The notes beneath the pieces were generated by a model. The model did no database searches. It saw only the letters and a list, made by a program, of their open reading frames with translations, and had not been told where the DNA came from. Position numbers and translations under genes: made by a program. DNA of 64,000 bases from a virus. Its lineage: Duplodnaviria; Caudoviricetes. Below are positions 8,163-51,178 of this stretch, piece after piece. Numbering within the stretch: position 1 is the stretch's first letter; each line of letters opens with the position of its first letter. The stretch covers positions 32,001 through 96,000 of IMG/VR virus record IMGVR_UViG_3300033463_000045; one strand, 5' to 3'.

Positions 8163-8176
8163 AGGAGGTACTTAAT

Positions 8177-8485
8177 ATGAATATAGAACAAATATTATCA
8201 AATCCTGATTTAATAGATACATTAGATAGTAATACAAAAACACAACTATATTTATCATTAATTAAAACAAAAACAGAATTAAATAATAAATTAAATGAAT
8301 TAAAAGCTAAAAAAGAATTATTAGAAAAGCAAAAAGAAGAATTAACAAATGAATTATATACTGAAAGTAATACTACAAATATGGAAGAATTAACTAAATA
8401 TATAAAAGAAGTAGAAACTAAATTCAATGAAGATTTTAAAAAAGAAGTAATTAATTTAAATAGTATAAAAGAAAAACTAAATTAG
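8177..8485 (+). CDS. Coiled-coil protein between the SbcC halves
   Basis: Heptad pattern; SD AGGAGG. Confidence 0.7.
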   Translation: MNIEQILSNPDLIDTLDSNTKTQLYLSLIKTKTELNNKLNELKAKKELLEKQKEELTNELYTESNTTNMEELTKYIKEVETKFNEDFKKEVINLNSIKEKLN

Positions 8486-8493
8486 GTGATTAT

Positions 8494-9135
8494 ATGAATT
8501 TAAATGAATTAATAAATGAAACTACAAAGATAAAATTAAATTTTGAAAATATCGTAAAAGATTATAATAATAATATTCAAAAGAAAGAAGAACTATTAAA
8601 TAAGATAACTGAGAATACTCAAAATATTGCATTATTAGAAAATACTCAAGAAGTTTTTAAAACATTAGAGAATAAATTAAGTGAAGCAAATATTATACAT
8701 GTAGAACAATTATGTAATCAAGCATTAAAAACAATATTTAATACAGATGAAATAGAATATACAATTAAAATAGAAACATTAATACAAAGAAATAATAATC
8801 AAGTTCAATTCTATTTATATGAAAAAGATTTAGTTAATAATACTGAAGTTAAAACAAGATTAGAAGATAATGGATTTGGAGTGATGTCAACCATTGGACT
8901 TGTACTTCAAATATATTTTATTATTATTCATAAGCAACAACATATATTATTTTTAGATGAATCATTAACTGCTATTTCTGTAGATAAATTAGATAAATTA
9001 AAAATATTTTTAGATGAGATAAGTAATAAATTAGATTTCAAATTTATATTAATAGCACATATGGAAAGTTTATTTAAATTAGCAGATTATAGATATAATG
9101 TAGAAAATGGAAAAATAGAAGAGATAATTTCATAA
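8494..9135 (+). CDS. sbcC: SbcC/Rad50-like ATPase, C-terminal half
   Basis: Coiled coil, signature-like NGFG, Walker B ILFLDE, H-loop IAH. Confidence 0.8.
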   Translation: MNLNELINETTKIKLNFENIVKDYNNNIQKKEELLNKITENTQNIALLENTQEVFKTLENKLSEANIIHVEQLCNQALKTIFNTDEIEYTIKIETLIQRNNNQVQFYLYEKDLVNNTEVKTRLEDNGFGVMSTIGLVLQIYFIIIHKQQHILFLDESLTAISVDKLDKLKIFLDEISNKLDFKFILIAHMESLFKLADYRYNVENGKIEEIIS

Positions 9136-9143
9136 TATATAAT
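9129..9143 (+). promoter_or_regulatory. Class-1 motif overlapping the upstream stop codon
   Basis: TTCATAATATATAAT. Confidence 0.75.
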
Positions 9144-9160
9144 ATAAGGAGTTAATTATT

Positions 9161-10093
9161 ATGTCAAAAGTTTGTATAGTGGGAGATACGCATTTTAGTC
9201 CTAAACAACCTGTATCAAGAAAAGATAATTACCCAGAAACATTATTAAAGAAATTAGATAGCTTATTAGAATTATGTATAGATAATAATGTTAGAGATGT
9301 TATATTTTTAGGAGACCTAATTAATAATAATCAAATGACTATGGAATATTTTATTATTTTATATAGATATTTTTCTCAATTTAGTAAATTTAATATAAAA
9401 CTCCATACAGTAATAGGTAATCATGATATTAATCACGGCAATGAAGAGTTTTTAGATAAATCTCCATTAGCGATATTATTTGAATCCAAATTATTTAATA
9501 ATAAAGATTTTATAAGAGATAATTGTAAATTTACTTTAAAAAATTATTATGATACAATAGATAAATTAGAACCTATAAAAGAAGGCGGAGTAAATATATT
9601 AATAGGTCATTATTTTTATTTAAGTGGTTTTAATGATATATATCATACTTTATCTCCAGAAGATTGCAAAAGATTAGGTTATAATTATTATTTTCTAGGA
9701 CATGACCATACACCTTATGAATCATTAAGAATAAATGGTTATGAAGTTCATAGACCAGGAAGTTTTAGTAGAGCAACTTCTGATACTTGTCAAGTTACAA
9801 GAGATAATATCAAAGTTTGTTTATTTGATACTGAGACATTAGGAATATCATATTTAGATATACCAAATGTTTTACTTAGTAAAGATGTATATAAAGAATC
9901 AAAATTAATATCTAAATTAATAGATAAAGATAATATAGATACTACATTAAGTCAAGATATAGATGATTTAATTAATGATTTATCATTTGATTTTTCTGGA
10001 GACATTTATAAAGTATTAGATGAAATGAATTTAGAAGATAAAGTAAAAGATGCAGTAATTAAATATTTAGAGGAAGAGGGAATGTACAGATGA
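9161..10093 (+). CDS. sbcD: SbcD/Mre11-like metallophosphoesterase nuclease
   Basis: GDTH, LGDL, GNHD, GHDH, PGS motifs. Confidence 0.88.
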   Translation: MSKVCIVGDTHFSPKQPVSRKDNYPETLLKKLDSLLELCIDNNVRDVIFLGDLINNNQMTMEYFIILYRYFSQFSKFNIKLHTVIGNHDINHGNEEFLDKSPLAILFESKLFNNKDFIRDNCKFTLKNYYDTIDKLEPIKEGGVNILIGHYFYLSGFNDIYHTLSPEDCKRLGYNYYFLGHDHTPYESLRINGYEVHRPGSFSRATSDTCQVTRDNIKVCLFDTETLGISYLDIPNVLLSKDVYKESKLISKLIDKDNIDTTLSQDIDDLINDLSFDFSGDIYKVLDEMNLEDKVKDAVIKYLEEEGMYR

Positions 10094-11662: not shown

Positions 11663-13105
11663 ATGAATACAAATGAATTAGGAACTAAATTATATGAAGG
11701 AGATGTAAAAGAATTATTTATAAATGCATCTACAAAATTATATAATTCAGTAGTACATACTTTAGGACCTGATGGTCTTAACTCAGCAATACCAACAAGT
11801 AATCAATATTTAAGTATAATTAATGATGGTAAAACAATTTTAGAGACATTAAGTTCTGGAGATATAGCAGAAAAATTAGCAATAAATACATTAAAAGAAT
11901 CTTCATTTGCTACTAATAAAAATGCAGGTGATGGAACAACAACTACAATAATAATGCAACATGAATTATTATATAATATTCAAAATTATAATATTAATAA
12001 TGAAGAACAAATAACAGCAACATATTTAACAGATTTAAGAGATGATTTATTAGAAAAATTAAAAGATTTTAAATTAGATATTAAATCAGATGATGATTTA
12101 AAAAAGATTATTACTGTTTCTTTAGGTTCAAATAAATTTACTGATACAGTATTTAATGCTTTTAGTAATTTATCTATAAGTCAGAAACCTACATTAGTAA
12201 AAGTAAATACAAAAAGCACAACAGATTATGTTGAAATAGATGGAGTAAATTTAGCTCCAGTAGAAGTTAATCCAGTAGTATTAAAATCAATTAGTCTTAG
12301 TGGAGATGAACCATTAAACGTATTAATATTAAATCAAGAAGTATCAAGAATAGATAACTCATTTGCTGCTTTATTAACTAAGATTAGTAAGAGTAATAAA
12401 AAGACAATATTATTATATACAGATATAAAACCAAGTGTTATGGACCAATTATTATATAATATTCAAGAAGGAGCATTAAATCTTATTCCTGTAAGATTAG
12501 CAATGCCAATAACTCAAATAGATGAAATAATTTCAGACCTTGAAGAATATTTTAATTGTAAAGCATTAAGTGATATGTTACCATATCAAACTAATCATAA
12601 TAATGAAGAGATTTTTGGAAAAGGAATCGGTTATATTTTAAATAAAGATTCTGTAATAATTAAGAATGATAATGAAGAATATAATAATAAAGAACATTTA
12701 GTTCCATCTCATTCTTCAGCAATAGAAATTGGATTTATTACATTTAGTCAACAAGATGAAGATTATAGAAGATTAGAAGATGCTGTACAATCTGCATATA
12801 ATGCAAGAAATTATGGTTATGTATTAGGAGCAGGTTATACTTATTATTGTTTAGGTTGTTTATTAGATGATATAGAAAAGAATAAACCTATAATAAGTGC
12901 ATTACAAACTATATTTAATAGATTATCTCCTATAGATATTAAAAAAGAAGAATTTATTATTTATATAAGAGATAATATATTTGATAGTTATAAAGTAGTT
13001 GAACAAGTAATATTAAATTCATTTACTGTAGTTGCTCAAATATTATCTACTAATTGTGTATTAGTTCCATACCAAAGAAATAGAATAAATGGAAATATAG
13101 AATAA
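11663..13105 (+). CDS. groEL: Chaperonin GroEL-like
   Basis: TLGPDG, INDGKTIL, AGDGTTT, LEDAV, GAG motifs. Confidence 0.88.
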   Translation: MNTNELGTKLYEGDVKELFINASTKLYNSVVHTLGPDGLNSAIPTSNQYLSIINDGKTILETLSSGDIAEKLAINTLKESSFATNKNAGDGTTTTIIMQHELLYNIQNYNINNEEQITATYLTDLRDDLLEKLKDFKLDIKSDDDLKKIITVSLGSNKFTDTVFNAFSNLSISQKPTLVKVNTKSTTDYVEIDGVNLAPVEVNPVVLKSISLSGDEPLNVLILNQEVSRIDNSFAALLTKISKSNKKTILLYTDIKPSVMDQLLYNIQEGALNLIPVRLAMPITQIDEIISDLEEYFNCKALSDMLPYQTNHNNEEIFGKGIGYILNKDSVIIKNDNEEYNNKEHLVPSHSSAIEIGFITFSQQDEDYRRLEDAVQSAYNARNYGYVLGAGYTYYCLGCLLDDIEKNKPIISALQTIFNRLSPIDIKKEEFIIYIRDNIFDSYKVVEQVILNSFTVVAQILSTNCVLVPYQRNRINGNIE

Positions 13106-13247
13106 TATATTGGCATTTATAATTATATTAACATTAAATTAGACATTCTTTTTCATAATGATAGTGATGTCGCCTCCAAAACATTTTAATTTTATATAAT
13201 TATAATGTAAGTCCAAGGCATATTGTGCATTCGTGCACTCCCTAATC

Positions 13248-13280
13248 AAAAGGTATTCATTTAATTATGAGTACCTTTTT
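13248..13280 (+). terminator. Intrinsic terminator
   Basis: AAAAGGTATTCAT-ttaatt-ATGAGTACCTTTTT. Confidence 0.75.
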
Positions 13281-13282
13281 AT

Positions 13283-13297
13283 TTCATAATATATAAT
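13283..13297 (+). promoter_or_regulatory. Class-1 motif
   Basis: TTCATAATATATAAT before SD. Confidence 0.8.
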
Positions 13298-13314
13298 ATA
13301 AGGAGAAATATTTT

Positions 13315-14487
13315 ATGGCAAAGAAAAAAGAAGAAAAAGATACAAATGAATTTTATGCTTTTTTAGAGAATAAGTATAAAGCATATTTTGAACCTGATGT
13401 ATACAAAACTGGAATTGTTGCATTAGATGAAGTTTTAAATGGAGGATTAGAAACTGGAAGCTTAATAGAATTATCATCAGAATCTCAAGCAGGTAAATCT
13501 ACTTTAGTATTGCATTTAGCTAAGAATTTTGCAGAAAAAGGATTAAAAACATTATATATTGACTCAGAAGGTTCTGTTAAAAATGATATGTTAAAAGGAA
13601 TAGGTTTATTACCTTATTTAAGTACAGCAGATAATAAAAGAAATATGTTTACTTTAGTAAGAGAAAGCGGTTATTCTAAAGTAGAAGAATTAATATCAAT
13701 GGCATTACAAAATGAAGATTTTAAATTATTTGTTATTGATAGTTTAACAGCCTTAACTTATGATGATTATTTAGATTTAGACTCTAAAAAAGATATAGTA
13801 GACCATCAAATAGGTTTAGATGCTAGATTAAATGGTAGATTATTAAAAAAATTAAATGCATTAAAAACAACTTATAATTGTATATTTATAATTATAAATC
13901 AAACAAGAACTAATATGGGTGGTTATGTTGTAACAAAAGAATCAACTGGAGGTCAAGCTGTTAAGTTCTATCCAGATGTTAGATTATTTATGAAAGTAAA
14001 AGAGAAGATTCAAGATGAAAAAGAATTAATTATCGGTAAACAAAAAATATATATTGGAGCAAATTGTACAATTGAAGCAAAGAAATCAAGAGTAGGTTCT
14101 GGTTTTATACAATTTCCTATTACAATTTATTATGGTAAAGGAGTAAGTAATTTAACAGCTTATGTTAATTTATTACCAACAATTAAAGTAAATGGAAAAC
14201 CTGTATTGAAACAACTATCTCCTGTATCTTATGAATTAAATGTTAATGGTAAAAAATATAATACATCAAAAGGTAAGAATGGTCTAAATACTTTAATTGT
14301 AGAACATTATGATGAATTAGTTCCAATAGTTGAAGAACATTTAGAGAATTTCTATAAAAAAGTAGCTGATGGTTTAACTGATATTGAAAGTGAAGAAATT
14401 ATAGAAGAAGTTCAATCTGAAGATTATGAATTAGACGATACATTAATTGAAGAGGAAAATGAACAAACAAATAATCAAATCGATTAA
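13315..14487 (+). CDS. recA: RecA/UvsX recombinase
   Basis: TGIVALDEVLNGG, SESQAGKST, YIDSEG, VIDSL, INQTR, TGGQAVKFY. Confidence 0.93.
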   Translation: MAKKKEEKDTNEFYAFLENKYKAYFEPDVYKTGIVALDEVLNGGLETGSLIELSSESQAGKSTLVLHLAKNFAEKGLKTLYIDSEGSVKNDMLKGIGLLPYLSTADNKRNMFTLVRESGYSKVEELISMALQNEDFKLFVIDSLTALTYDDYLDLDSKKDIVDHQIGLDARLNGRLLKKLNALKTTYNCIFIIINQTRTNMGGYVVTKESTGGQAVKFYPDVRLFMKVKEKIQDEKELIIGKQKIYIGANCTIEAKKSRVGSGFIQFPITIYYGKGVSNLTAYVNLLPTIKVNGKPVLKQLSPVSYELNVNGKKYNTSKGKNGLNTLIVEHYDELVPIVEEHLENFYKKVADGLTDIESEEIIEEVQSEDYELDDTLIEEENEQTNNQID

Positions 14488-14581
14488 TTATTTAATCGGA
14501 ATCATTTAGATATATTTACTGGAGGCATTTAGATGACCTCTGGTAAATGTTCTAATTAAAGTTATATAAATATATGAAAGG

Positions 14582-15685
14582 ATGATTAAAGTGCTAGTTT
14601 TAACTGAAAAACCGAAGACATTTAGAGAGATGGTAGGACAAGAATTAGTTAAAAAATCTTTATTAAAAATAAGTAAAAATCCAGAAACATCACCAAGAAT
14701 AATATTATTAAGTGGAGAATATGGAACAGGAAAAACTTTAGCTTCAAAAATATTTACTAGTGCTTTAAATTGTCCAAATAAATTAGCTGATGGAGATGCT
14801 TGTGGCAAAGAAGATTGTCCTATATGTGGACAAAAAATAGAAGAAAGCATGTTTTATGAAGAATATGATTCAGCGATTGTAGGTAATGTAGATACAATAA
14901 AAGAATTAAGAGGAACTTTTTATTTTGGTTATACAAAAGGTTATAAAGTTATTGTATTAGATGAATGTCAATTAATATCAAAAACAGCACAAGGAGCATT
15001 ATTAAAGATATTTGAGCATCCAGAACCAAATGTCTTTTTTATTATATGTACAACTGACCAAGATAAACTTCTGCAAACAATTGTATCACGTAGCCTAGTT
15101 TTATGTTATAATAAAATTAATTATAATGATATAGAGGAGTATTTGCATAAAATAGTTAATAAGTATAGTCAAAGGTGCAGTGAATTAAGCACAGATGAAG
15201 TAGATACAAATATTAAATTAATTGCAAGGAAAAGTCAAGGTCATATAAGGAATGCATTAATGTTATTAGATAATATGTTCTTATTAGGAAAAGATTTTAA
15301 AAATTTAATTAAAGATATAAGACCTCATTATTTAGAATTACTTTCAATGGGGTTAAATTATAATGATTATATAAAAAGATTTGATAAAAATGAAGTAGAT
15401 AAAAATATAAGTCGAATAATAAATGACTTATTATATTTCCCAATTTCAGAATTAAAAACCGAATATGAATTACTTGTTTTAGATATTAGCAAATATATAT
15501 TTAATATTAATAGTAATAATGAATTAGATAGTATTATAAGTAAGTTTAGAAATAATATTAAATTATTTAATATTTTAAATGATAAAGTTATTTATAATTT
15601 ATTTACTGATGACATACAATTTCAAATAGCGATGCTAATATTAATAAAAAATTTAAGTTCTTTAAAAATAAATAATGGAGGTTAA
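14582..15685 (+). CDS. dnaX: Clamp-loader ATPase, DNA Pol III gamma/tau-like
   Basis: PKTFREMVGQ, GEYGTGKT, LNC...CGKEDCPIC zinc site, LDECQ, ALLK, TIVSRS, GHIRNAL. Confidence 0.9.
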   Translation: MIKVLVLTEKPKTFREMVGQELVKKSLLKISKNPETSPRIILLSGEYGTGKTLASKIFTSALNCPNKLADGDACGKEDCPICGQKIEESMFYEEYDSAIVGNVDTIKELRGTFYFGYTKGYKVIVLDECQLISKTAQGALLKIFEHPEPNVFFIICTTDQDKLLQTIVSRSLVLCYNKINYNDIEEYLHKIVNKYSQRCSELSTDEVDTNIKLIARKSQGHIRNALMLLDNMFLLGKDFKNLIKDIRPHYLELLSMGLNYNDYIKRFDKNEVDKNISRIINDLLYFPISELKTEYELLVLDISKYIFNINSNNELDSIISKFRNNIKLFNILNDKVIYNLFTDDIQFQIAMLILIKNLSSLKINNGG

Positions 15686-29209: not shown

Positions 29210-29224
29210 TACATAATATATAAT
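29210..29224 (+). promoter_or_regulatory. Class-1 motif variant
   Basis: TACATAATATATAAT. Confidence 0.7.
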
Positions 29225-29241: not shown

Positions 29242-29655
29242 ATGTATAAAGAGATAAAATCTAATTTAAAAGAAACACTAAATTTAGATGAATGTGAAAT
29301 ACTTAATGAAATGGCAACCATTGGACAAGATAATAATGGTTATGTTTATATGATATATAAAAAAGAAGGAGTAATACCTCATTTTCATATATTAAAAGAT
29401 AATAAAACAATTCAATGTATTAGAATAGATAAACCATATTACTTTAGTCATAATGGTAAATACAGTTATAAATTAAATAGTAAAGAAAGAAAAGAATTAG
29501 TATCATTTTTAAATAGATTACATTTCTCTAAGAGACCAAATAATACTATGACTAACTGGGAATTTTTATTAAGTCAGTGGAATATTGAAAATAATACAGA
29601 TATAAATGAAGATTTAGTTATACCTGATTATACTAAATTAAAAATGGATAAATAG
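29242..29655 (+). CDS. Putative capsid-targeted protein with PHFH motif
   Basis: Leader MYKEIKSNLKE...ILNE|MA resembles the MNLY family; EGVIPHFHI. Confidence 0.55.
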   Translation: MYKEIKSNLKETLNLDECEILNEMATIGQDNNGYVYMIYKKEGVIPHFHILKDNKTIQCIRIDKPYYFSHNGKYSYKLNSKERKELVSFLNRLHFSKRPNNTMTNWEFLLSQWNIENNTDINEDLVIPDYTKLKMDK

Positions 29656-29670
29656 AAAGAAGGAAATAAA

Positions 29671-30156
29671 ATGAGTAGAGAAATAAAAGATATATTTAAA
29701 GACCAAGAATTAATAGACTTATGTAATAATAATATTGAATTAACTTCTAAATTAAATGAGGTTAATTTAGAAATAGTAAATAAATTTAAAGAAGTTACTA
29801 AATCTGATGAAATTGATAATGAAGAAAAAATATTTTTAGCAGAAAGCTTTGTTAATAAAGGTGAGTATGAGGTTTTCTTAAATGATAGATTTGAAGATGA
29901 ACTTTATAATGAAATAGTTCAATTTAATAAATTAAAAGAATCAATTGATGAAAAGAAAGCATTAATTAAGAATTTCTTAGAAGAAAACGGTATGGGAACT
30001 TTTGAAACAAGTACATTAAAAATTAAATATACATCAGCAACTACTGCTACAACAATAGACACAACAAGATTAAAGAAAGAACTTCCAGATATTGCTGCAA
30101 AATATTCTAAAGTATCAGCAAGGTCTTCTTCATTATCAATTGAACCAATAGAATAA
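29671..30156 (+). CDS. Phage coiled-coil protein
   Basis: IDTTRLKKELPDIAAKYSK, a common phage C-terminal motif. Confidence 0.65.
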   Translation: MSREIKDIFKDQELIDLCNNNIELTSKLNEVNLEIVNKFKEVTKSDEIDNEEKIFLAESFVNKGEYEVFLNDRFEDELYNEIVQFNKLKESIDEKKALIKNFLEENGMGTFETSTLKIKYTSATTATTIDTTRLKKELPDIAAKYSKVSARSSSLSIEPIE

Positions 30157-30170
30157 AAGGGCGATAAATT

Positions 30171-30395
30171 ATGAATTTATATAGTAATATTAAAAATAAT
30201 ATTAATAGTGCAGATTCTAAGTATATGAAAGAATGGACAGAAATATGTGAAGCATTTTGTAAGAAGATAAATGCTGAACTATTATTTGTTAATCTTGATA
30301 ACTTTGGTTATATGACTAAAGATGGTCAAACTATTCATATGTATGCTGATGAGCTTGCAGAATATCTAAATAATAAAAATAAGAATAATCAGTAA
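30171..30395 (+). CDS. MNLY-leader family protein
   Basis: MNLYSNIKNN leader; its domain is duplicated in 31767..32636. Confidence 0.75.
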   Translation: MNLYSNIKNNINSADSKYMKEWTEICEAFCKKINAELLFVNLDNFGYMTKDGQTIHMYADELAEYLNNKNKNNQ

Positions 30396-30414
30396 ACAAT
30401 TTACTGATTATTTT
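30384..30414 (+). terminator. Intrinsic terminator
   Basis: AATAATCAGTAAA-caa-TTTACTGATTATTTT. Confidence 0.7.
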
Positions 30415-30437
30415 CTTTATATAAGAGGAGATTATTT

Positions 30438-30683
30438 ATGAACTTATATGAAAGTATTGAAAAAAATTTAAAAGAATCAGAAAAATCTTTGGAAGACAAA
30501 TGTAAAGAAATATTTAATAAATATAGAGATGAATTTGATACTATAAATGATGTAAGAGATATTGCAGATTATTTAAATAAATTATATTCAGAAGAAGGAA
30601 TACAAGCTGTAAATGATTGGTTCCTATCGAGTGCAACTGAAGAATACAAAAAAGATTTAAAATCTTTAATAAATAAAAAGTAG
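30438..30683 (+). CDS. MNLY-leader family protein
   Basis: MNLYESIEKNLKE|SE. Confidence 0.75.
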   Translation: MNLYESIEKNLKESEKSLEDKCKEIFNKYRDEFDTINDVRDIADYLNKLYSEEGIQAVNDWFLSSATEEYKKDLKSLINKK

Positions 30684-30697
30684 AAAGGAAAATAGAT

Positions 30698-30967
30698 ATG
30701 AACTTATATGAAAGTATTGAAAAAAATTTAAAAGAATCAGAACATTCTGATGATTATTGTACAATAGCTGCTACAGAATTTGTTGTTGATAGATTACCAA
30801 GTGATTGGAAAAATTTATCTAATGACGAATTAAAAGAATTAGTAAGAGAAGAAGTAAATAATTATAATAATGCTAATGTCGAACCTGAATATGAAAATGA
30901 AGATTTTTATGGTGATGAAGCAGATTATAATAAAGTATTTGATTATATAATATATAGTTATAAATAG
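30698..30967 (+). CDS. MNLY-leader family protein, acidic
   Basis: First 15 codons identical to those of 30438. Confidence 0.75.
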   Translation: MNLYESIEKNLKESEHSDDYCTIAATEFVVDRLPSDWKNLSNDELKELVREEVNNYNNANVEPEYENEDFYGDEADYNKVFDYIIYSYK

Positions 30968-30981
30968 AAAGGAAGATTAAA

Positions 30982-31752
30982 ATGAATTTATATGAAAGTA
31001 TTAAAAATAATTTAGATAAAGATTCAGATACAGAATTAGAAATTTTAGATACTCAAATAGATTTTCCTGCCGTGTTTGATTCATTTGATACAAGCGGCAT
31101 TATTGATATAATAAAAGACACTGATTCAAAAGATTTAAGTGCGTGTATTGCAGGAGGAACAAGAAGTTCTCGCGAACAAAATGCATATAATTTATATATA
31201 GATAAATGCATTTTATGTGGCAAAGTAGGTTATAATAATTTTATCCCAGTGCATAAAAATAAATATAAAGATTATAGTTATTGGTCGTATGAAGACAATT
31301 ATGGATGGCCTTTTTCTAATGTTCATTTTCCATCTGAAAAAGTAGCCAAAATAATAGTTAAAATACCTCATAAACAACGCAAAAAAATTTATATAAGAGC
31401 AAGAATATGTTTTTGCAAAGATTGTTATGAGAAAAATGTCGTACCATTTGTGCTTAAAAAAGCAGATGAAATTAAAAAAATTGTCGCTTATTATAGAGAT
31501 AATAATAAATATCCAAGTAAAGGCGAGGTTATAATTTTTGGTAAGGATATATTAGATATAATTAATGACGGGATAATTAATGCTAGTCATTATAATAAAC
31601 ATGAAAAAAATAAAATAATCGATAGATTATATCAAATTGTTGATTTAGAAACACCTTATAATGATGTTGATAAGATTTATGAAAGATTTCTCAAATATTT
31701 TATTTCATCGGGTAACGCTGATGACTCAATTAAATTTAATCCAAAGAAATAG
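30982..31752 (+). CDS. MNLY-leader family protein with CxxC pair
   Basis: MNLYESIKNNL; CILC...CKDC. Confidence 0.75.
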   Translation: MNLYESIKNNLDKDSDTELEILDTQIDFPAVFDSFDTSGIIDIIKDTDSKDLSACIAGGTRSSREQNAYNLYIDKCILCGKVGYNNFIPVHKNKYKDYSYWSYEDNYGWPFSNVHFPSEKVAKIIVKIPHKQRKKIYIRARICFCKDCYEKNVVPFVLKKADEIKKIVAYYRDNNKYPSKGEVIIFGKDILDIINDGIINASHYNKHEKNKIIDRLYQIVDLETPYNDVDKIYERFLKYFISSGNADDSIKFNPKK

Positions 31753-31766
31753 AAAGGAAGATTAAA

Positions 31767-32636
31767 ATGAATTTATATAGTAATATTAAAAATAATTTAA
31801 ATGAATCTGCAAAATTCTATTATAAAGAATTTAGTGGCGCTGGTGAAATTGATTATGTTGAATTTGAGACAGAACAAGAAGCAAATGATTATGCTAAAAA
31901 AGTTAATGAAGAATCTGGTAATGAAACAGCAGTATATAGAATAGATAATGATGAATGCATTGCTTTATATGACGCATTAAATGAATCTGAAAAGTTAAAA
32001 GAAGATGATAAGAGTTATTCCAAAGGAGTTAATGTATTAGATAAATTATATAGTAATCCTGAGTATGAAGCTTTATGGGATAAGAAATTTAATGAATTAG
32101 TCCCAAAATCAGGAAAAGCTAAGACAACTATTGGAGAGATTATGCGAGGATTTTCTTCATTAAGTCATGCATATTATCAAAATGGTGATACTGTTAATTC
32201 ATTATATCGTCAACATTTTAATAGCGGTTATTTACAAGATGCACATGATTTATATAAAGCAGTAAAAGAACTTGGAGATAGAACTCTTATTGATTTAACA
32301 GATAAAATGTTTAATACAAGAAGAGAAAGCGCTTATTGTAAATATATGGCAGCTTTTTATGAGTATTTTATAAATAATTATCTTTCAAAAGAAAATATAA
32401 ATGAATCTGAAGATAAAGTATTAGATTCTATTAATCAACTTTCTTATAATAAAAATAAGAAATTAGATAAATATATGGCTGAATGGGAATCTATTTGTCA
32501 AGCTTTTTGTAAAAAGATAGGAGCTAAATTATTATTTGTTAATATAAATAATTTTGGTTATGAAGATAAAGATGGAAATTTAGTTCATATGTATGCAGAT
32601 GAATTAGAACAATATTTAAAAAATAATAAAATTTAA
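31767..32636 (+). CDS. MNLY-leader three-domain polyprotein
   Basis: LNES / LNES-LKED / INES separate three modules. Confidence 0.75.
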   Translation: MNLYSNIKNNLNESAKFYYKEFSGAGEIDYVEFETEQEANDYAKKVNEESGNETAVYRIDNDECIALYDALNESEKLKEDDKSYSKGVNVLDKLYSNPEYEALWDKKFNELVPKSGKAKTTIGEIMRGFSSLSHAYYQNGDTVNSLYRQHFNSGYLQDAHDLYKAVKELGDRTLIDLTDKMFNTRRESAYCKYMAAFYEYFINNYLSKENINESEDKVLDSINQLSYNKNKKLDKYMAEWESICQAFCKKIGAKLLFVNINNFGYEDKDGNLVHMYADELEQYLKNNKI

Positions 32637-32652
32637 GAAAGGAGAAATAAAA

Positions 32653-35600
32653 ATGAACTTATATGAAAATATTAAAAATAATTTAAATGAAGATGAGAAT
32701 GTTCAATCAGGTATGACGTTATATGATTATATTAAAAATGTCTGTAATGGAGAAATAGACATGGACGTTTGTGATAATGATATAGATATGATGGTAGCAT
32801 TTTGTCATAATATAAATGAACATAGTTCAGAATACCCACAAATGGAAAGATTTTTAAATTTATTAGCAAAAAGAACTAAAATTATTAAACAAAATAATGG
32901 AGGATATGCTCCAATATTAATTTGTGATTTTAGTTCAGCATTAAAACCATATAATGAAGAGTGGAAGAAATTCTTTGATATGGATTATTCAGACTTTGAT
33001 GAAGATGAAGCATATTATGAAGCAGTAGTTAATCTTGAACCATTAATAAGCGGTAATGCAGGAGAAGATACTTATAAAGAATTTTGTGATATTATGGAAG
33101 GTAAAAAATTAGAAGAATCTGAAGAAGAAAATGAAGAACAAATTTGTGTTATATGTAATAAACCATTTACTGGTTGGGGTAATGACGCTTGGCCAGTAGC
33201 AGAAGGTTATTGTTGTGATGAATGCAATTTTTCTAAAGTAATTCCTGCAAGATTAGCTCAATTAAGAGAATATCGTAATGATACTAAAATAAAAGAATCT
33301 GAATCTTTTAAATTAAATAAAGATGCAGAAGATTTTGAAGATTTAGTAAAAAGAGATTTTCAAAATTATATAGAAGATACTTATAATATACAAAATGTTC
33401 AAGAATTAGCAGATAGATTAGAACACGTAACAGAAGAAGATATAAATGATTATTTTACAACTTTATTCTATGAAATATTTGACAATGAAGATATGGAAAC
33501 AGCTAATTTAGCAGAAGAAATTATAAGAAAAGAATATGGACTTCAAGATAATATAGATGAATCTGAAAAACAAGAAAAATTAAATGAGGCAAAAAATTAT
33601 GATGATTATTGGAATTTATCGGAAGATATTCCGATTATTCCTAATTTTGACCTTGATAATTTTCCAAAAGATAAATTGTGGCAATTAAGAAAAGAAATAA
33701 CTTTAGGAAGCCCATATTTATCTAAATATGATAATTCATTAGGTCTAAATCCAGCTGCTTTAAGAAATTTCTTTAATTCATTTGTTGAAAATGGAAAGAA
33801 TAATAATAAAACATTAAAAGATATAGATAATCAAGATGATTTATATAATTTTTATATAAATTGTGAAGACCCTTTTAATTTAAAAGACGAATTAGATGAA
33901 TCTGAAGAAGCAAATTTAACATTATCACAGATTAAAGATAATTTAGAAGCAATTAAAAATAATGAAGAAAGAAATTATGAAATATATGGAAGTGCATTAG
34001 AATTTCCAAGTATATTAGAAAAAATTGATAATGTAGATGACAGAAGAAAAGCATTAATGATGTTATATATGAATAATCCAAAGTTAGAAGAATTAAAAAC
34101 TTGGACTGCAAAACAAATTAAAGATTATATATTAGATACTGAGGAAGTATTTAATATAAATATTGATAGTAATTTTGATGAAGAACCAACTAATTATAGA
34201 AAAGCATACGCAAAATGTTTTGAATTAATTGGAACAAATTTAAATGAATCTGCTAAAGGACAATGGACAAGTGGTTTTAAAAAATTAGATGGTTATACTG
34301 AAGAAGAAGCTTATAAATTATTAGTTAAAGCGGCTAATATAAAGCTTAATACTTTTGCAAAGAATAATCATGATAATGAAGAACTTCAAAGAGAATTTGA
34401 AGAGAAATATAATGAACCATTTGGAATACAAATTGGTGGAGATACCGTAGGTAATTATGGTTATAATCCAAAATATTTAGAATTTTTAAATTCTAAAGGA
34501 AATTTAGATGAAGCAGAAGATAATCAATTATATGTATTTTCAAATGCAGAATCTGAAGATATGACAGATGCTATTAGTATGATTAATTCTATATATAAAA
34601 ATGAAGCTCCTAAATTACAATTTAAAATGCATTCAGAAGGACCTATGTGGTTTGTTGATTTTATAGGTAGTTATCAAGACATTTGTGATTATTTAATTAA
34701 GTTAGGTTGGTATAATGAAAAAGAAATAAATGATTTAACTAATAATAAATTAATTAGACCGTTACCTATAAAAGAATCAGAAGAAAAAGTAAATCCTAAT
34801 AATTTAACTAAAGAACAATTATGGAAATTAAGACAAGAAATAAGATTAAATAGTATATATACAAATGATTATGAAAATTCATTTGATTTAGACCCTGTAG
34901 CAGTTCAAGATTTCTTTGATACATTTATTGAAGATATGGAACAAGATGATGATGGAAATCCTAATAATAGAAAAATAGAAGATTATGATAATGCTGATGA
35001 TTTATATAATTTCTATACAGGTTGTGAAAATCCTTTTGGTGAAATAGAAGAAATTAAAGAATCAGAAGATTATTATGATGACGATGATGATTATTGGGAA
35101 GACCATAATGATGACCCAATAGAATGCACTATTGAATATGATGAAGATGGAAAACCATATTTTATGTATAATAATGAGAAAGAATATATAGATGAATATA
35201 TGAAAGATGGAGCAGGTGGAGCTACTAAACCATTAACAGCATTTTCAGCTATTAGAATAGTTCATTCAGATAATGGAGAAACTGTTAGTGTTCAATATCT
35301 TCATGATTCAGAAAAGATTAAAGAAGCAGAAGAATCAGATGAAGATAAAAAGTTATCTTTTAAAGAAAGAGTTCTTAAAGCATATGATAATTGTAATTAT
35401 TCAGTAAGGTCAGATATGCCAACAATTAAAGATATAATAGATTATTTAGACCTAAGTAATGATTCAGAAACAAGAGATAAAGTATCTCAAATTATTTATA
35501 AAGCAGGAAAAGATTGGCAAGTAGAAAGCTGTAATGAAGCAGAAGACAAAGAAGAATCTAAAGAAGAAGTAAAACATAAAGATGATATTAAAGTATATAT

Positions 35601-36306
35601 GAATACATGGAAAAATTATAATGAATATGGTGCAGATTTAGATGCTTATGGAATTAAAGATGGTTGGATGAATCCTGATGATGCATTAGAATTTTGTAAA
35701 AAATATGCAGAAGATGAACCGTTTATAAATGATATAGATAATAATAGCGGAATTGATATTGAAGTATCTGAATATGATAATGCTCCTTCAGTATTAGAAG
35801 GTTTAGCAAAATTAAATGATGTATTATATTTTGGAGCAGGAAATGCTGAAAAAGGAGATATTCCATTAGTATATGAAGCTTGGGCTGATAAAGAGTCAGC
35901 AACTACTCCATCATTAGAAAATATAGAAAATTTTATAGATTTCTTAGAAAATGGAGAATATTATGTTCATAATGATGTTACATCAACAGAAGATATTGGA
36001 AAATGGTATGTTGAAAATGTAGGTTATGAAGGAGTATCAAATATAGAAAATTATATTGACTCAGACCAAGTTAAAGAAGATTGGCAAGAAGATATAGACC
36101 AAAATTATTTAGATGATGATGGAAATCCAACAGAAGACTGGTACGAAGTTGATGATTCACTTGTTGACGAAGATATAGAATCAGCAAAACAAAGTAATGA
36201 TACTAATTTCTTTGATAAATATTTTGATTATGCATCTCTTGGAGACGATATTTATGGAGATGGAAATTGGTACGTAACAGATAATGGTTCAGTTGAAATA
36301 TATTAA
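32653..36306 (+). CDS. MNLY-leader polyvalent polyprotein (about 11 modules) with C-terminal ArdA-like antirestriction domain
   Basis: Repeated [LIV]xE[SAD] linkers; C-terminus IKVYMNTWKNYNE...YFDYASLGDDIYGDGNWYVTDNGSVEIY matches the ArdA pattern. Confidence 0.8.
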   Translation: MNLYENIKNNLNEDENVQSGMTLYDYIKNVCNGEIDMDVCDNDIDMMVAFCHNINEHSSEYPQMERFLNLLAKRTKIIKQNNGGYAPILICDFSSALKPYNEEWKKFFDMDYSDFDEDEAYYEAVVNLEPLISGNAGEDTYKEFCDIMEGKKLEESEEENEEQICVICNKPFTGWGNDAWPVAEGYCCDECNFSKVIPARLAQLREYRNDTKIKESESFKLNKDAEDFEDLVKRDFQNYIEDTYNIQNVQELADRLEHVTEEDINDYFTTLFYEIFDNEDMETANLAEEIIRKEYGLQDNIDESEKQEKLNEAKNYDDYWNLSEDIPIIPNFDLDNFPKDKLWQLRKEITLGSPYLSKYDNSLGLNPAALRNFFNSFVENGKNNNKTLKDIDNQDDLYNFYINCEDPFNLKDELDESEEANLTLSQIKDNLEAIKNNEERNYEIYGSALEFPSILEKIDNVDDRRKALMMLYMNNPKLEELKTWTAKQIKDYILDTEEVFNINIDSNFDEEPTNYRKAYAKCFELIGTNLNESAKGQWTSGFKKLDGYTEEEAYKLLVKAANIKLNTFAKNNHDNEELQREFEEKYNEPFGIQIGGDTVGNYGYNPKYLEFLNSKGNLDEAEDNQLYVFSNAESEDMTDAISMINSIYKNEAPKLQFKMHSEGPMWFVDFIGSYQDICDYLIKLGWYNEKEINDLTNNKLIRPLPIKESEEKVNPNNLTKEQLWKLRQEIRLNSIYTNDYENSFDLDPVAVQDFFDTFIEDMEQDDDGNPNNRKIEDYDNADDLYNFYTGCENPFGEIEEIKESEDYYDDDDDYWEDHNDDPIECTIEYDEDGKPYFMYNNEKEYIDEYMKDGAGGATKPLTAFSAIRIVHSDNGETVSVQYLHDSEKIKEAEESDEDKKLSFKERVLKAYDNCNYSVRSDMPTIKDIIDYLDLSNDSETRDKVSQIIYKAGKDWQVESCNEAEDKEESKEEVKHKDDIKVYMNTWKNYNEYGADLDAYGIKDGWMNPDDALEFCKKYAEDEPFINDIDNNSGIDIEVSEYDNAPSVLEGLAKLNDVLYFGAGNAEKGDIPLVYEAWADKESATTPSLENIENFIDFLENGEYYVHNDVTSTEDIGKWYVENVGYEGVSNIENYIDSDQVKEDWQEDIDQNYLDDDGNPTEDWYEVDDSLVDEDIESAKQSNDTNFFDKYFDYASLGDDIYGDGNWYVTDNGSVEIY

Positions 36307-36341
36307 TAAATACACAAATAAAATTAATATTAATAATAAAT

Positions 36342-36369
36342 AAAGAAGGTTATTTAAACCTTCTTTTTT
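36342..36369 (+). terminator. Intrinsic terminator
   Basis: AAAGAAGGTT-attta-AACCTTCTTTTTT. Confidence 0.75.
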
Positions 36370-36382
36370 CATAATATATAAT
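36368..36382 (+). promoter_or_regulatory. Class-1 motif
   Basis: TTCATAATATATAAT. Confidence 0.8.
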
Positions 36383-36399
36383 AGAAAGGGTAGATTATT

Positions 36400-37530
36400 A
36401 TGGATAAGAAATTAATGTATTATATTATTATTCATTATATTGATATGAGAAAACTTTTAAGAAGTCTTAATATTGATATTAGACCTAATAAAAGTATGCT
36501 ATGCCCGTTCCACCAAAATACTCGTACGCCCGCTGCTCATTTCTATGAGGAAGAAGATGGTAGTTGTAGAATATGGTGTTATTATGAGAATAGAATGTTT
36601 AGTAATATAGATATTTATAGAACATATAAACCGGACATTAATTTAGAAGAATTAGCTCAGAAGATATATGATAATTTACCTGATGAAGAAAAGAAAAAGG
36701 TATTTAATAATGTTAATGTAACTTATGAATTACCAGAATTACCGTATAATAAAGCATTAAATGATTTTAAAAATAATAAGATTTCTTTTGATATTTTATT
36801 AAATACAATTAATTATTTAACACCTAGAGATGATAATTCTAATTTATTAGATATAATATATTCTCAGGGCTTATCTGGTATATCAGATTTAAATAAAAAT
36901 AATAAATATGTATATTATATGAAGAATTATAAATCTAATTACAGATATATATTAGCTAATAAAATATTAATGACTATGCAAAATAAATTACCTAATTATA
37001 TAATAGAGTATTTTCAATATTCAGGAGATTCTATAATGTTACCTAATATAATAAATGATAGATTATATGCAATAACATTTAGAAATTTAAATGGAAATAA
37101 GCAATTTATAAAATTAGGAGTTGCATATTTATTTTATAATTTAGGTAATTTACCAAAAGATTTTAAATATGGCATGCCATTATTAATAACTGAAGGAAAT
37201 ATAGACTCTGATGTTGGTAAATTAATCTATCCATATTGTATTGCAACAATGACAAATTCATTATCAACAAATCAAATTCAATTATTATTAGGATTAACTA
37301 ATAAAGTAATAATAGCTTTTGATAATGATGAAGCCGGAGAAAAGGGATTTAAAAATGTTTATCATAAATTAAAATCATTTCAATTTGATGTTAAAAAATT
37401 TAAGCATAATTCTAATTTAAAAGATTTTGGTGATTTATTAGAATTAAAAATGAAAGATGAAGATGAATATAATTATATTTATCAAACATATAAGATACAA
37501 ATAGAGAATTTGGTTGGTGACGTGAGATGA
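36400..37530 (+). CDS. dnaG: DNA primase (DnaG-like)
   Basis: CPFH zinc-binding motif; TOPRIM ITEGNID, AFDNDEAG, KDFG. Confidence 0.85.
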   Translation: MDKKLMYYIIIHYIDMRKLLRSLNIDIRPNKSMLCPFHQNTRTPAAHFYEEEDGSCRIWCYYENRMFSNIDIYRTYKPDINLEELAQKIYDNLPDEEKKKVFNNVNVTYELPELPYNKALNDFKNNKISFDILLNTINYLTPRDDNSNLLDIIYSQGLSGISDLNKNNKYVYYMKNYKSNYRYILANKILMTMQNKLPNYIIEYFQYSGDSIMLPNIINDRLYAITFRNLNGNKQFIKLGVAYLFYNLGNLPKDFKYGMPLLITEGNIDSDVGKLIYPYCIATMTNSLSTNQIQLLLGLTNKVIIAFDNDEAGEKGFKNVYHKLKSFQFDVKKFKHNSNLKDFGDLLELKMKDEDEYNYIYQTYKIQIENLVGDVR

Positions 37531-48041: not shown

Positions 48042-49355
48042 ATGAATTTATACGAGTCAATTAAAAAGAATTTAAAAACAAAAGAGAGAATATCTAAATT
48101 AAATGAATCTGAGAATAATTTAAAAGAGGTTATTCGTACAGGTTTAGAAATGAAAGATTATTTAAAGTTAAATGGTTTTGAATCTCTTGTTAATAAAATA
48201 GATGATGATAAAGCAACTTATAGATTATATTTAGACCCAGTAAAAGGAACATTTAGTGGTAATTATAAATTAGAAAAAATAAATGAATCTTGTGGAAGAA
48301 AGAAAAAAATTAAAATAAAAGAAAGTAATTTAGCAAAATATCTTGGAGTTGCTCAATCATTAACAGAAAAAGTAAATCATGCTAATGATGATATTAATGC
48401 TAAAATACTAGAAGCTTTAAGAAGTAAATATAAAGCAAAGAAATATGCAGATGATTTTAAAAAAGCAGGAATTACAGTAGATGATTCACCAAGAGAAGGT
48501 GTTACATTAATTGGACCTAATGGTAAAAGATTATCTGCTGACAGATTAGAAATACATGGACCAGCAAAACCAGGACATAATAATACTCATGGTGGTCGTT
48601 ATGGTTCAAGAATTAAATCTAAAATAAAAGATTTAGATAATTATAATAAGAGAATAGCAGAACAAAAAGAAAATATTGAAAATCTTAAAAATGCTGAGCA
48701 TGATGATATTATTAGAAAATATCCTAATAAAACTACTGAAGAAGCTTTAAAAGCACATGAAGATAATATTGCTAGTGAAGAAAGTAGTTTAAATTGGAAT
48801 AAGAGATGGAGAAAAGATACTCAAAAAGATATTGCTCGTGAACATAGAAATCGTGCTGAGGGACATAATAGTGATTTAGGATATGGAAATAGAATTATTG
48901 ATAGAAAATCATCTGCGATTGATAAAATAGACTATAAAGGTTATTTAGACTCTAAGGATAATGATATTAATAAAGACTTTACAGGTGGCGGTTATGTAAA
49001 ACCTACTCCAGGACAACAAGTTAGACAAGACCTTAAAAATGCTAAAGATAAAGTAAATAATACTTATTATAGATGGGATGCTCAAGATGTTGCAAGAGAT
49101 AGAAAAATTGATGCGAAAGCAATTGAAGCCCGTAAGAAAGAAATTGAAGAAGAATATAAAAAGAAAATGGACGATGAAGTAAATAGAATGTTAGAAAGAA
49201 AATCTAAAGCAGATTCTAGTTATAAAGACCATAAAGAATATTATAGAAAAAATGTTAATGATTTAAATGCTTTTAGAAAACAACATAATTTACCAACAAA
49301 AGATGAAGATTCATTCGATGATTATCTTGAAAAGAAAGCTAATTCAAATTGGTAA
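48042..49355 (+). CDS. MNLY-leader family protein with basic coiled-coil body
   Basis: MNLYESIKKNL; LNES, INES, IKES, LTEK. Confidence 0.75.
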   Translation: MNLYESIKKNLKTKERISKLNESENNLKEVIRTGLEMKDYLKLNGFESLVNKIDDDKATYRLYLDPVKGTFSGNYKLEKINESCGRKKKIKIKESNLAKYLGVAQSLTEKVNHANDDINAKILEALRSKYKAKKYADDFKKAGITVDDSPREGVTLIGPNGKRLSADRLEIHGPAKPGHNNTHGGRYGSRIKSKIKDLDNYNKRIAEQKENIENLKNAEHDDIIRKYPNKTTEEALKAHEDNIASEESSLNWNKRWRKDTQKDIAREHRNRAEGHNSDLGYGNRIIDRKSSAIDKIDYKGYLDSKDNDINKDFTGGGYVKPTPGQQVRQDLKNAKDKVNNTYYRWDAQDVARDRKIDAKAIEARKKEIEEEYKKKMDDEVNRMLERKSKADSSYKDHKEYYRKNVNDLNAFRKQHNLPTKDEDSFDDYLEKKANSNW

Positions 49356-49370: not shown

Positions 49371-49709
49371 ATGAATTTATATGAAAGTATAAAGAATAAT
49401 CAAAAATTTAATGAGGCAGAAGAAAAAACTTTAGTAACAATATATCAAGTTCCAACAGGAAAAGATTATGCTTTTATGGATTATGATTTTGCTAAAGAAC
49501 ATGGATTTAATTTTAATGACTATGAAAAAGTTGCTGATATTGAAGTGCCAATAAGTACTGACTTAGAAGAAATCTTTACATTAGGTAATATACATAAAGA
49601 TATGTTCAATGCCTCTAGAGATAAATTTAGAAGTATTTCTGTTTCAGATATAATTGAAAAAGATGGTAAAAAATATTACGTAGATTCATTCGGATTTAAG
49701 GAGGTATAA
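49371..49709 (+). CDS. MNLY-leader protein carrying a YodL-like domain
   Basis: IYQ...YAFM...DYEKV...LEEIF...RSISVSDII...YYVDSFGFKEV. Confidence 0.78.
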   Translation: MNLYESIKNNQKFNEAEEKTLVTIYQVPTGKDYAFMDYDFAKEHGFNFNDYEKVADIEVPISTDLEEIFTLGNIHKDMFNASRDKFRSISVSDIIEKDGKKYYVDSFGFKEV

Positions 49710-49711: not shown

Positions 49712-50347
49712 ATGGCATTAGTTGAAATAGGAATTACTGGTAATGCAGGATATAGCACAAATCAAGTAAGAAAAATGTCTGTTAGCGAATTAATATCAGA
49801 ATTAGAAAATTTTGATTCTGAAGATGAAGTATATTTAAAAGATGCTGGAAATAGATATGGCGCAGCTTATGGACAAATTAATTATATAGAACAAGGTTTA
49901 TCAGAAGATTATGAAGATGATGACGAAGATGAATATTATGAATCAAATCTTTATTCAATGATTAAGAGCAATCAAAAATTAAATGAAAGTGTAGATGATA
50001 CTAAAACAGATGAAATTTTTAATTTATTTGTTGAGTTAGCTAATGAAATAGAAAATAAATATAATGTTAGTGATATTACTTCTAAATTAAATAAATCTGA
50101 TATGAAAGTAAGTGAAAAATGGGGTTCTTATAATTTGTATGTTAAGAATTATATGACAATACCATTTCTTAATTGTCCTTTAAATATAGATTTTGAATTT
50201 CATTCAGATGATAATAAATTTAAAGTTAGAGCATTATTATCAAATCCAGATTCAACAGGTTTTTGGTCAGATGTAATGAAGGGAAAAACTCTTGCATCTG
50301 GTAAATATGAAAATAATAATATTAGATTTTATAAAGATAAACAATAA
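49712..50347 (+). CDS. Two-module protein with an internal MNLY-type motif
   Basis: ...YESNLYSMIKSNQKLNE|SV... Confidence 0.7.
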   Translation: MALVEIGITGNAGYSTNQVRKMSVSELISELENFDSEDEVYLKDAGNRYGAAYGQINYIEQGLSEDYEDDDEDEYYESNLYSMIKSNQKLNESVDDTKTDEIFNLFVELANEIENKYNVSDITSKLNKSDMKVSEKWGSYNLYVKNYMTIPFLNCPLNIDFEFHSDDNKFKVRALLSNPDSTGFWSDVMKGKTLASGKYENNNIRFYKDKQ

Positions 50348-50359: not shown

Positions 50360-51178
50360 ATGGGAGTATTAAAAGTATTAAAAGGTACATTATCTACATT
50401 AGGTAAAAAGAATCGTAATGGTCGTATTTATTCTAAAGAGTTATGGGAAAATGTTCTTAATTCTGAATATTGGAATGATATGATGAGTAATAATTCATTA
50501 TTTGGAGAATGTGTTCATCCTGCAGATAATAGAAGTACATCAGATTCATTTGAAATAGATGCTAATAATGTATCTCATAGAATTAAAGAAGCTCATATTG
50601 AAGGAGATAAATTAATAGGTACTGTTGAAATATTAGATACTCAAGCAGGAAAAAATATTGCAGCATTAATTGATAGTGGTTGTAATATAGGAATATCTGC
50701 AAGAGGTGCAGGAGACCTTAATGGTGATACTGTAGACCCAGATACTTATCAATTTAAAACTTTTGATTTAACATTTAGACCTTCTGATTATAATGCTAGA
50801 CTAGTTCCTTTAACTGAATCAGAAAAGAAAAACTTTAAACCTATTAAAGAATCTGAAGAATCAGATACATTAATTAAAGGTGCAGAAGAAATAAATTCTA
50901 CTAAAGTAGATAAAGATATTAAAAAAGGTTTAAAAGATAGAGTAGTTAAGAAATATATTGATGGTTATACAGATAAACCAATTCAATTTAGTAAATTTAC
51001 AATAGAAATATTACCCACTACTTCTGATACTGATAAATTAAGAGTTGCTGTATATGATAAAGAGCATGACGCAAGAGAGATTGTTGGTTATTTTAATAAA
51101 GATGACATACATACAGATGATTCGTTAGTTGAAAAAATATTAGATATAATGAGTTATTCATACGAATATGATTTATAA
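50360..51178 (+). CDS. Prohead core protease (T4 gp21-like)
   Basis: KNRNGRIYS, LFGECVHP, VSHRI, ILDTQAGK, GISARGAG, FDLTFRPS. Confidence 0.9.
   Translation: MGVLKVLKGTLSTLGKKNRNGRIYSKELWENVLNSEYWNDMMSNNSLFGECVHPADNRSTSDSFEIDANNVSHRIKEAHIEGDKLIGTVEILDTQAGKNIAALIDSGCNIGISARGAGDLNGDTVDPDTYQFKTFDLTFRPSDYNARLVPLTESEKKNFKPIKESEESDTLIKGAEEINSTKVDKDIKKGLKDRVVKKYIDGYTDKPIQFSKFTIEILPTTSDTDKLRVAVYDKEHDAREIVGYFNKDDIHTDDSLVEKILDIMSYSYEYDL

Follow-up and report, generated by a model that had tools for sequence, protein, structure and literature searches.

In bacteriophage T4, a 10-residue N-terminal leader is sufficient to load the internal proteins, and one of these, IPI*, is an injected anti-restriction protein (PMC9026906, PMC3012670). 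The T4 protease gp21 cuts after L/I-x-E (PMC9026906). For the polyvalent proteins of mobile elements, release by embedded peptidases (MPTase and others) has been proposed by Iyer, Burroughs, Anand, de Souza and Aravind in 2017, and ArdA was described mainly from conjugative elements of Firmicutes, next to ArdC-N (PMC5512222). In the literature searched, no description of leader-tagged polyproteins that are cut by a prohead protease was found. In this report, a candidate polyprotein of this kind, with a row of L-x-E sites and an ArdA-like last module, is described from an uncultured tailed phage (Duplodnaviria; Caudoviricetes). Its gene lies in a window of 64,000 nucleotides, bases 32001-96000 of the 112,265-bp IMG/VR virus record IMGVR_UViG_3300033463_000045 (G000), which has direct terminal repeats and 25% G+C. 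Coordinates labelled G000 are those of the whole record, and all others are those of the window.

The polyprotein is encoded by a single open reading frame (ORF) of 1217 residues at 32653-36306 on the plus strand, which is the sole long frame there and is preceded by the ribosome-binding site GGAG at 32641-32644. The intact chain of 140 kDa has a net charge of -172, and all of its modules are acidic. Short motifs ending in Glu and a small or acidic residue recur along the chain: LNED at residues 11-14, LEES at 153, IKES at 213, IDES at 301, LNEA at 310, LDES at 414, LNES at 530, LDEA at 618, IKES at 706 and 801, IKEA at 889 and VES/CNEA at 957-963. Ten instances of the pattern [LI]xE[SA] were counted; shuffling the same residues 5000 times gave 2.0 +/- 1.35 and never reached 10, and the reversed motif occurs three times. 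When the sequence was re-read, the ORF and every motif listed in a preliminary description of this DNA were found in their places. Divided at these sites (arrows mark the predicted cuts), the chain consists of the following parts, in which confidence of the AlphaFold2 (AF2) models is given as the predicted local distance difference test (pLDDT):

32653-32691, plus strand: leader, residues 1-13, MNLYENIKNNLNE↓D, candidate capsid-targeting sequence with an L-x-E site at its end, common to 13 genes
32692-33117, plus strand: module 1, residues 14-155, ending LEE↓S, alpha/beta domain, AF2 pLDDT >90 to residue 155 and falling thereafter
33118-33297, plus strand: module 2, residues 156-215, ending IKE↓S, Cys cluster CxxC...CCxxC, probable zinc ribbon
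33298-33588, plus strand: module 3, residues 216-303, ending IDE↓S, helical bundle (coordinates include the 9-residue double-site linker SEKQEKLNE↓A)
33589-33900, plus strand: module 4, residues 313-416, ending LDE↓S, paralogue of module 8
33901-34248, plus strand: module 5, residues 417-532, ending LNE↓S, delimited by motif sites and homologue alignments
34249-34512, plus strand: module 6, residues 533-620, ending LDE↓A, delimited by motif sites
34513-34776, plus strand: module 7, residues 621-708, ending IKE↓S, found in homologue P0182 behind a short leader-like N-terminus
34777-35061, plus strand: module 8, residues 709-803, ending IKE↓S, the most widespread module (LWKLRQEI...)
35062-35325, plus strand: module 9, residues 804-891, ending IKE↓A, phrog_17101 (function unknown), E 2.3e-7
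35326-35538, plus strand: module 10, residues 892-962, ending CNE↓A, with (L/M/I)NE↓AEE at the same place in homologues
35539-36306 including the stop codon, plus strand: module 11, residues 963-1217, ArdA-like domain and putative DNA mimic, with about 85 inserted residues

The terminal module is, with high confidence on profile and modelled fold, a divergent homologue of ArdA. Its recognisable start, IKVYMNTWKNYNE at residue 977 (nucleotide 35581), and the end of the chain, ...GNWYVTDNGSVEIY, are as had been described. Residues 963-1217 alone match the Pfam family ArdA (PF07275) with E 3.7e-4 and 21.6 bits, against a curated cut-off of 27 bits. An exhaustive phmmer search yielded 96 cluster representatives, many of them stand-alone proteins of 230-270 residues. 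PF07275 matches 29 of 36 aligned relatives (best E 1.3e-17), and the profile of the family matches ArdA of Tn916 (2w82) with E 1.8e-9; among PDB sequences, ArdA was found with this family profile alone, and a single-sequence phmmer search with the last module returned none. The AF2 model of the module shows the elongated fold of three domains that characterises ArdA, with a pLDDT of 93 and a predicted template modelling (pTM) score of 0.81. In a Foldseek search against the PDB, the two chains 2w82_A and 2w82_B were the sole high-probability matches (1.00; E 7.5e-4 and 1.2e-3), with a TM score by target of 0.61-0.67, and in VIA-align 2w82 was the sole chain with Z >=2 (Z 8.4, root-mean-square deviation 3.2 A, 154 of 162 residues, chain 3-164). 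The module has 69 Asp and Glu against 16 Lys and Arg, giving a net charge of -53 and an isoelectric point of 4.05 over 255 residues, and its roughly 85 extra residues include a partial repeat of the C-terminal NYxD motif. Neither 50,697 phage records nor 72,556 plasmid records gave a tblastn match to the module. The preliminary description had called this module ArdA-like and had made the name depend on a profile or fold match; since ArdA is recovered by both, the assignment is borne out.

The leader of the polyprotein belongs to a family within the same genome. Thirteen genes begin with M(N/S)LY..I, in most cases followed by ..NL(N/K)E↓S, and their bodies are unrelated. The consensus is MNLY(E/S)(S/N)IKxNL(N/K)E↓S, and the leader closes with LNE↓D in the polyprotein, while most of the other leader genes have LNE↓S or LKE↓S there. 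It is the peptide that is kept, through synonymous codon changes (AAC/AAT, TAT/TAC, GAAAGT/GAGTCA). Several leader genes lie near the capsid gene, and others form two groups in the window:

30171-30395, 30438-30683, 30698-30967, 30982-31752 and 31767-32636, plus strand: five tandem leader genes with the leader MNLY(E/S)(S/N)I..N and otherwise unrelated bodies
48042-49355 (437 residues, basic) and 49371-49709 (112 residues, YodL), plus strand: two genes with the shared leader just upstream of the protease gene

The second of the latter pair matches YodL (PF14191) with E 2.1e-10. Beyond residue 20, the density of sites is 7.0 per 1000 residues in the leader genes and 2.3 in the 128 others (Poisson P 1.7e-7), and no such excess is observed for the reversed motif. 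A second leader polyprotein, of 979 residues with 11 [LI]xE[SA] sites, is encoded at G000 12479-15418, 19.5 kb before the start of the window, and its first module is the second module of a family of 786-residue homologues. In addition, an ORF of 211 residues at 49712-50347, just before the protease gene, holds a copy of the leader in mid-chain, ESNLYSMIKSNQKLNE↓S, and resembles a scar left where two leader genes fused.

A protease of the kind that could act on these sites is present, together with the head proteins of a T4-type phage:

50360-51178, plus strand: T4 gp21-type prohead protease (Peptidase_S77, PF03420; E 4.5e-13 and 1.6e-11, above the Pfam cut-off)
G000 30607-32466: portal (Portal_T4; E 3.5e-26)
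G000 105890-107275: Gp23-type major capsid protein (E 4e-12)

The catalytic His and Ser of the protease are intact: of 98 homologues, 96 retain an HP motif (here GECVHP) and 93 the Ser of G(I/V)SxRG. A dead protease had been suspected, as a pairwise alignment with 5jbl puts the Ser one residue off; this was rejected on the basis of the homologues, and the 5jbl chain is presumably an inactive mutant, since it has Ala exactly at the family's His and Ser positions. After its catalytic domain, the protease has the conserved sites PLTE↓SEK and PIKE↓SEE; T4 gp21 and phiKZ gp175 are also processed at the C-terminus (PMC9026906). ALKE↓S (residues 32-35) and MMNE↓S (residues 61-64) lie in the N-terminal part of the capsid protein, the region in which one would expect a propeptide. 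A search of the capsid protein against PDB sequences gave no match. Sites of the LNE↓S type are also observed in the first 20 residues of the portals at G000 30607-32466 and at 7635-9617 of a related 128-kb contig (L008), which hints that the portal N-terminus is trimmed as well. Upstream of the capsid gene and past the end of the window, two adjacent genes (G000 102589-103842 and 103865-104626) encode proteins with repeated R(I/V)xVLEG motifs near the N-terminus, which may be decoration or scaffold proteins.

Across the wider family, the site before the ArdA domain is a regular feature. In 74 ArdA-like homologues with at least 22 upstream residues, [LIVM]xE[SADGE] lies 6-24 residues before the YMNTW core in 91%, against a background of 30%. 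From Glu to core the commonest distances are 10-14 residues, Leu occupies P3 in 54 of 68, and the site recurs regardless of what stands upstream, a short leader or a long chain of many modules. In fourteen homologues the core is preceded by fewer than 22 residues; most of these begin at the core, and one lies among small early-type genes. On the 128-kb contig, the gene order is Portal_T4, a 93-residue gene, a homologous polyprotein of 786 residues, a YodL protein, roughly 7 kb with other genes, an ArdA-like gene that stands alone and has the leader MNIFNEIQSNLKE↓S (42% identity, E 1e-50), two genes and Peptidase_S77.

The modular build seen in the preliminary description was confirmed by the homologues, which have the same modules in different orders and numbers, with break points that cluster at the motifs. 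Among 78 homologues of similar length, the same segments vary in order and number and the ArdA-like segment is always last; shorter homologues include single modules behind a leader. Of the alignment break points on the polyprotein, 57% are no more than 12 residues away from a motif site, where 23% is the random value, and none of 5000 trials reached the observed figure. At the projected ends of modules in the homologues, a site is found in 71 of 85 distinct contexts, against a background of 32%. The first module of the leader gene at G000 100292 starts directly after LNE↓S and recurs inside the homologues P0002-P0004 directly after ALNE↓S. At 30100-36400, the DNA that encodes leaders and linkers forms families of short direct repeats (18-63 nt, 65-92% identity), possibly the joints for recombination of cassettes. 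The ArdA-ended homologue P0077 lies on a 197-kb contig, where an intein with a LAGLIDADG endonuclease splits a UvrD-type helicase gene (L006 6975-9930), according to precomputed Pfam matches.

The ten modules before ArdA have no function that could be recognised by sequence and fold searches. Pfam and PHROG scans of the whole protein returned nothing useful, and scans of modules 1-10 at their exact boundaries returned only phrog_17101 in module 9 and the sub-threshold matches DUF4428, DUF7677 and LPD15; no peptidase family was found in any module with Pfam or PHROGs. The AF2 model of residues 14-962 was built as one chain with a mean pLDDT of 57.6, and is confident for modules 1, 3 and 8 only; these confident stretches end at motif sites. 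Foldseek with this model against the PDB gave nothing at E <=0.001, and an Atlas shape search gave TM <0.3. Module 1, which stands at the N-terminus of some homologues and inside P0002 and P0004, has no Pfam, PHROG or PDB match, and ESM Atlas feature searches with modules 1 and 8 gave no usable match. The CxxC...CCDEC cluster noted earlier in module 2 was located at residues 165-191 (nucleotides 33145-33225). All five of its Cys are kept in the three homologues P0002-P0004, and the module has a weak, sub-threshold match to DUF4428 (E 0.009); in P0183 it follows the leader directly. Module 3 is modelled with a pLDDT of 72-91 over residues 224-303, and its structure search (VIA-align wide) returned helical bundles only, with Z <=6.4, which is not significant. 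The paralogy of modules 4 and 8 is visible as a DNA repeat (D5) of 123 nt with 74% identity. Module 8 (pLDDT 86-90 over residues 714-793; weak, sub-threshold match to DUF7677) is preceded by a site in 23 of 25 distinct contexts in homologues and followed by one in 19 of 23, and it stands alone, without a leader, in P0184. Module 10 has a weak match to LPD15 (E 0.018), below the cut-off.

The phage probably infects a Gram-positive bacterium, because its closest cultured capsid relatives, at 23-30% identity, are those of Listeria phage LIS04, Bacillus phages SP-15 and HSE3 and Streptococcus phage GXN1, and because its genome encodes a CHAP+SH3 lysin. A megablast search of 50,697 phage records with 10 kb around the polyprotein gene gave no match. 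The head genes are dispersed over the genome, and the polyprotein gene lies just upstream of the primase and helicase genes; in a closer relative, the order of polyprotein, primase and helicase is the same. The gene is the last of a transcription unit at 29242-36306 that contains leader genes and the polyprotein and is bounded by two elements:

29212-29223, plus strand: promoter-like 12-mer CATAATATATAA, which heads the unit
36342-36369, plus strand: hairpin AAAGAAGGTT-ATTTA-AACCTTCTTT followed by TTT, probable terminator of the unit

The 12-mer has 17 copies in the genome, 15 of them intergenic and most 26-33 nt upstream of a start codon. Copies were observed at 2325, 9131, 13285, 18425, 29212, 36370, 38725, 52340, 60333, 60744 and 63479 of the window and at G000 1403, 6293, 30063 and 97652. 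The next copy after that of the unit, at 36370, heads the primase gene, and others head the helicase and polymerase genes and the portal operon. From its sequence and placement, it looks like a phage-specific promoter class that serves replication genes, the leader-gene unit and the portal operon. A scan for sigma-70 patterns gave 79 sites, against 94.7 in shuffles, and thus did no better than shuffles. The sequence TATAAATA, which we take to be the T4 late promoter, was also tried and set aside; it has 55 copies, mostly inside ORFs, and is uninformative at 25% GC.

Taken by analogy with T4, the polyprotein is probably capsid cargo that is cut by the prohead protease. The 13-residue leader would target the chain to the core of the assembling prohead, like the T4 internal proteins' capsid-targeting sequence, and the gp21-type serine protease would cut after Glu at about 12 (L/I)-x-E↓(S/A/D) sites. 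Cleavage would remove the leader and free about 11 small acidic proteins of 7-17 kDa plus the ArdA-like protein of 29 kDa, which would remain in the head and pass into the host along with the DNA. Once inside, the ArdA-like mimic could sit in a host nuclease's DNA-binding site before the phage genome becomes exposed, the likeliest target being a type I restriction-modification enzyme; the other modules would probably be more host-takeover or anti-defence factors. The modules may move as cassettes between leader genes and polyproteins, with the leader or linker as the joint. The preliminary description had proposed an ArdA that is preloaded in the virion and released by proteolysis. Comparative evidence speaks strongly for this, through the S77 protease, the leader of 13 genes and the L-x-E site before the core, while packaging and cleavage as such are inferred.

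Several points weigh against this reading. Each functional step in it, from packaging, cleavage and ejection to the identity of the target and the activity of the other modules, is deduced from sequence and analogy. The gene lies by those for primase and helicase, and its unit has the same 12-mer as the primase, helicase and polymerase genes, which gives no indication of late expression coupled to the head; this 12-mer also precedes the portal operon. All modules are acidic, whereas the T4 internal proteins are basic, and packing acidic modules along with DNA may therefore carry a cost. Ahead of the ArdA module the site is CNE↓A, with Cys at P3, and that of the leader is LNE↓D, with Asp at P1', a residue common at this position in the family (17 of 68 sites). 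The L/I-x-E rule is itself borrowed from T4 (PMC9026906), and the specificity of the phage's own enzyme may differ. The module's own Pfam ArdA score is under the gathering threshold. Finally, endonuclease V, and not restriction enzymes, is the reported target of one ArdA-like protein from a phage (PMC13091555), so the nuclease target here need not be a type I enzyme.

The position of the gene beside primase and helicase genes, in a unit with their promoter-like 12-mer, would also suit a cytoplasmic, unpackaged anti-defence protein that is made with the replication genes. The shared N-terminus would then mark a paralogous family or an optimised translation start, and L-x-E-S would represent acidic linkers or recombination joints; the leader and linker DNA indeed consists of short direct repeats usable for cassette recombination, and the ArdA of conjugative elements, which is expressed early, has its action in the cytoplasm (PMC2731889). 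This explanation is considered unlikely, as it leaves unexplained the same motif at the N-terminus of the capsid protein and in the protease tail, the enrichment of internal sites in leader genes alone, the L-x-E placed 10-14 residues before the ArdA core in 91% of relatives whatever their upstream part, and the homologues beside portal and protease genes in a related phage; retention of the leader as a peptide through synonymous changes also counts against it.

A classical polyvalent protein (Iyer et al. 2017), in which one uncut chain is delivered and acts with ArdA tethered to the other modules, would account for the many domains in one phage polypeptide, and ArdA is among the domains listed in PMC5512222; the weak LPD15 match points the same way. 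It is nevertheless judged quite improbable: Pfam and PHROG scans found no embedded peptidase and no hallmark polyvalent domain besides ArdA, while protease-type sites at every junction and free-standing, leader-tagged single modules argue for separate units, and a folded chain of 140 kDa would presumably be hard to pass through the tail channel. In T4, the acidic core protein gp22 is broken down into small peptides. The chain described here is likewise acidic and predicted to be heavily cut, like gp22, which gp21 cleaves (PMC9026906), and it could thus be a scaffold-like core filler that is loaded and cut, with its acidic fragments expelled or used in head assembly and not in the host. Such a role is very improbable, as the modules are folded domains of 7-29 kDa and not short peptides, one module is ArdA and a neighbouring leader gene has YodL, both of them conflict-system domains, and rapid module shuffling is typical of arms-race cargo and not of structural proteins.

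If the polyprotein is indeed capsid cargo, a DNA-mimic inhibitor familiar from conjugative elements is delivered ready-made in phage heads, and the genome would therefore be protected from the first moment of entry. The prohead protease would double as a processor of multi-effector polyproteins, a role that has so far been proposed only for the embedded peptidases of polyvalent proteins. The leader and the L-x-E rule would provide a sequence signature for injected phage proteins in metagenomes, and about ten unnamed modules here, with many more in homologues, would become candidate anti-defence factors. The leader could also act as a cargo-loading tag in phages of Gram-positive bacteria, as the T4 tag does in T4 engineering. 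More broadly, and with somewhat less than even confidence, it is suggested that T4-type phages of Gram-positive hosts arm their virions with interchangeable cassettes of an address or linker peptide and one small domain, which are used singly or strung together, loaded by a lineage-specific leader and separated by the protease. This way of arming would be widespread and undescribed, with ArdA as its first recognisable cargo and L-x-E as the mark of a capsid-delivered ArdA subfamily, and the ten modules here and dozens in homologues would be new injected anti-defence proteins.

Compared with known systems, the terminal module resembles Orf18 ArdA of Tn916 (2w82; PF07275) in profile, in fold over nearly the whole 2w82 chain (residues 3-164) and in its strong acidity. 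It differs by the insertion of about 85 residues and by being phage-borne, behind ten other modules and a protease-type site. With the polyvalent proteins (PMC5512222), the polyprotein shares the presence of many unrelated domains in one mobile-element polypeptide (2 to 15 there, about 11 here) that is presumed to be co-delivered with DNA, and ArdA and YodL are both in the domain list of that study. In contrast to these proteins, no embedded peptidase and no ArdC-N were found here, and the joints fit the separate prohead protease at 50360-51178. The DarA, DarB and Hdf proteins of phage P1 offer a precedent for head-carried, injected anti-type-I proteins (PMC5512222; PMC12810830); they are unrelated, bind or modify DNA instead of mimicking it, and are not polyproteins. 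The inner-body and ejection proteins of phiKZ, 201phi2-1 and SPN3US are similar in being cut after Glu by a diverged gp21 homologue, often at several sites (PMC9026906). Their motif is S/A-x-E, the cuts mostly remove propeptides and do not separate shuffled modules, and no ArdA cargo has been described there.

With the T4 proteins IPI, IPII, IPIII and Alt, which carry a capsid-targeting sequence, are processed by gp21 and are injected, the leader genes share a short leader on unrelated proteins, an L/I-x-E end, an S77 protease in the genome and a predicted anti-restriction cargo; in T4 this is IPI*, which blocks a restriction enzyme. The lineage is distant from T4, as judged from capsid protein identities of 23-30% to LIS04, SP-15 and GXN1, the leader has 13 residues, and the cargo is acidic where that of T4 is basic. 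The candidate anti-restriction unit is a putative DNA mimic of the ArdA type and does not have the IPI* fold, and a single translation product holds up to 11 cargo units, joined at protease-type sites. The polyprotein fits an extension of the T4 logic, with an address tag, a protease site per joint and ArdA as cargo.

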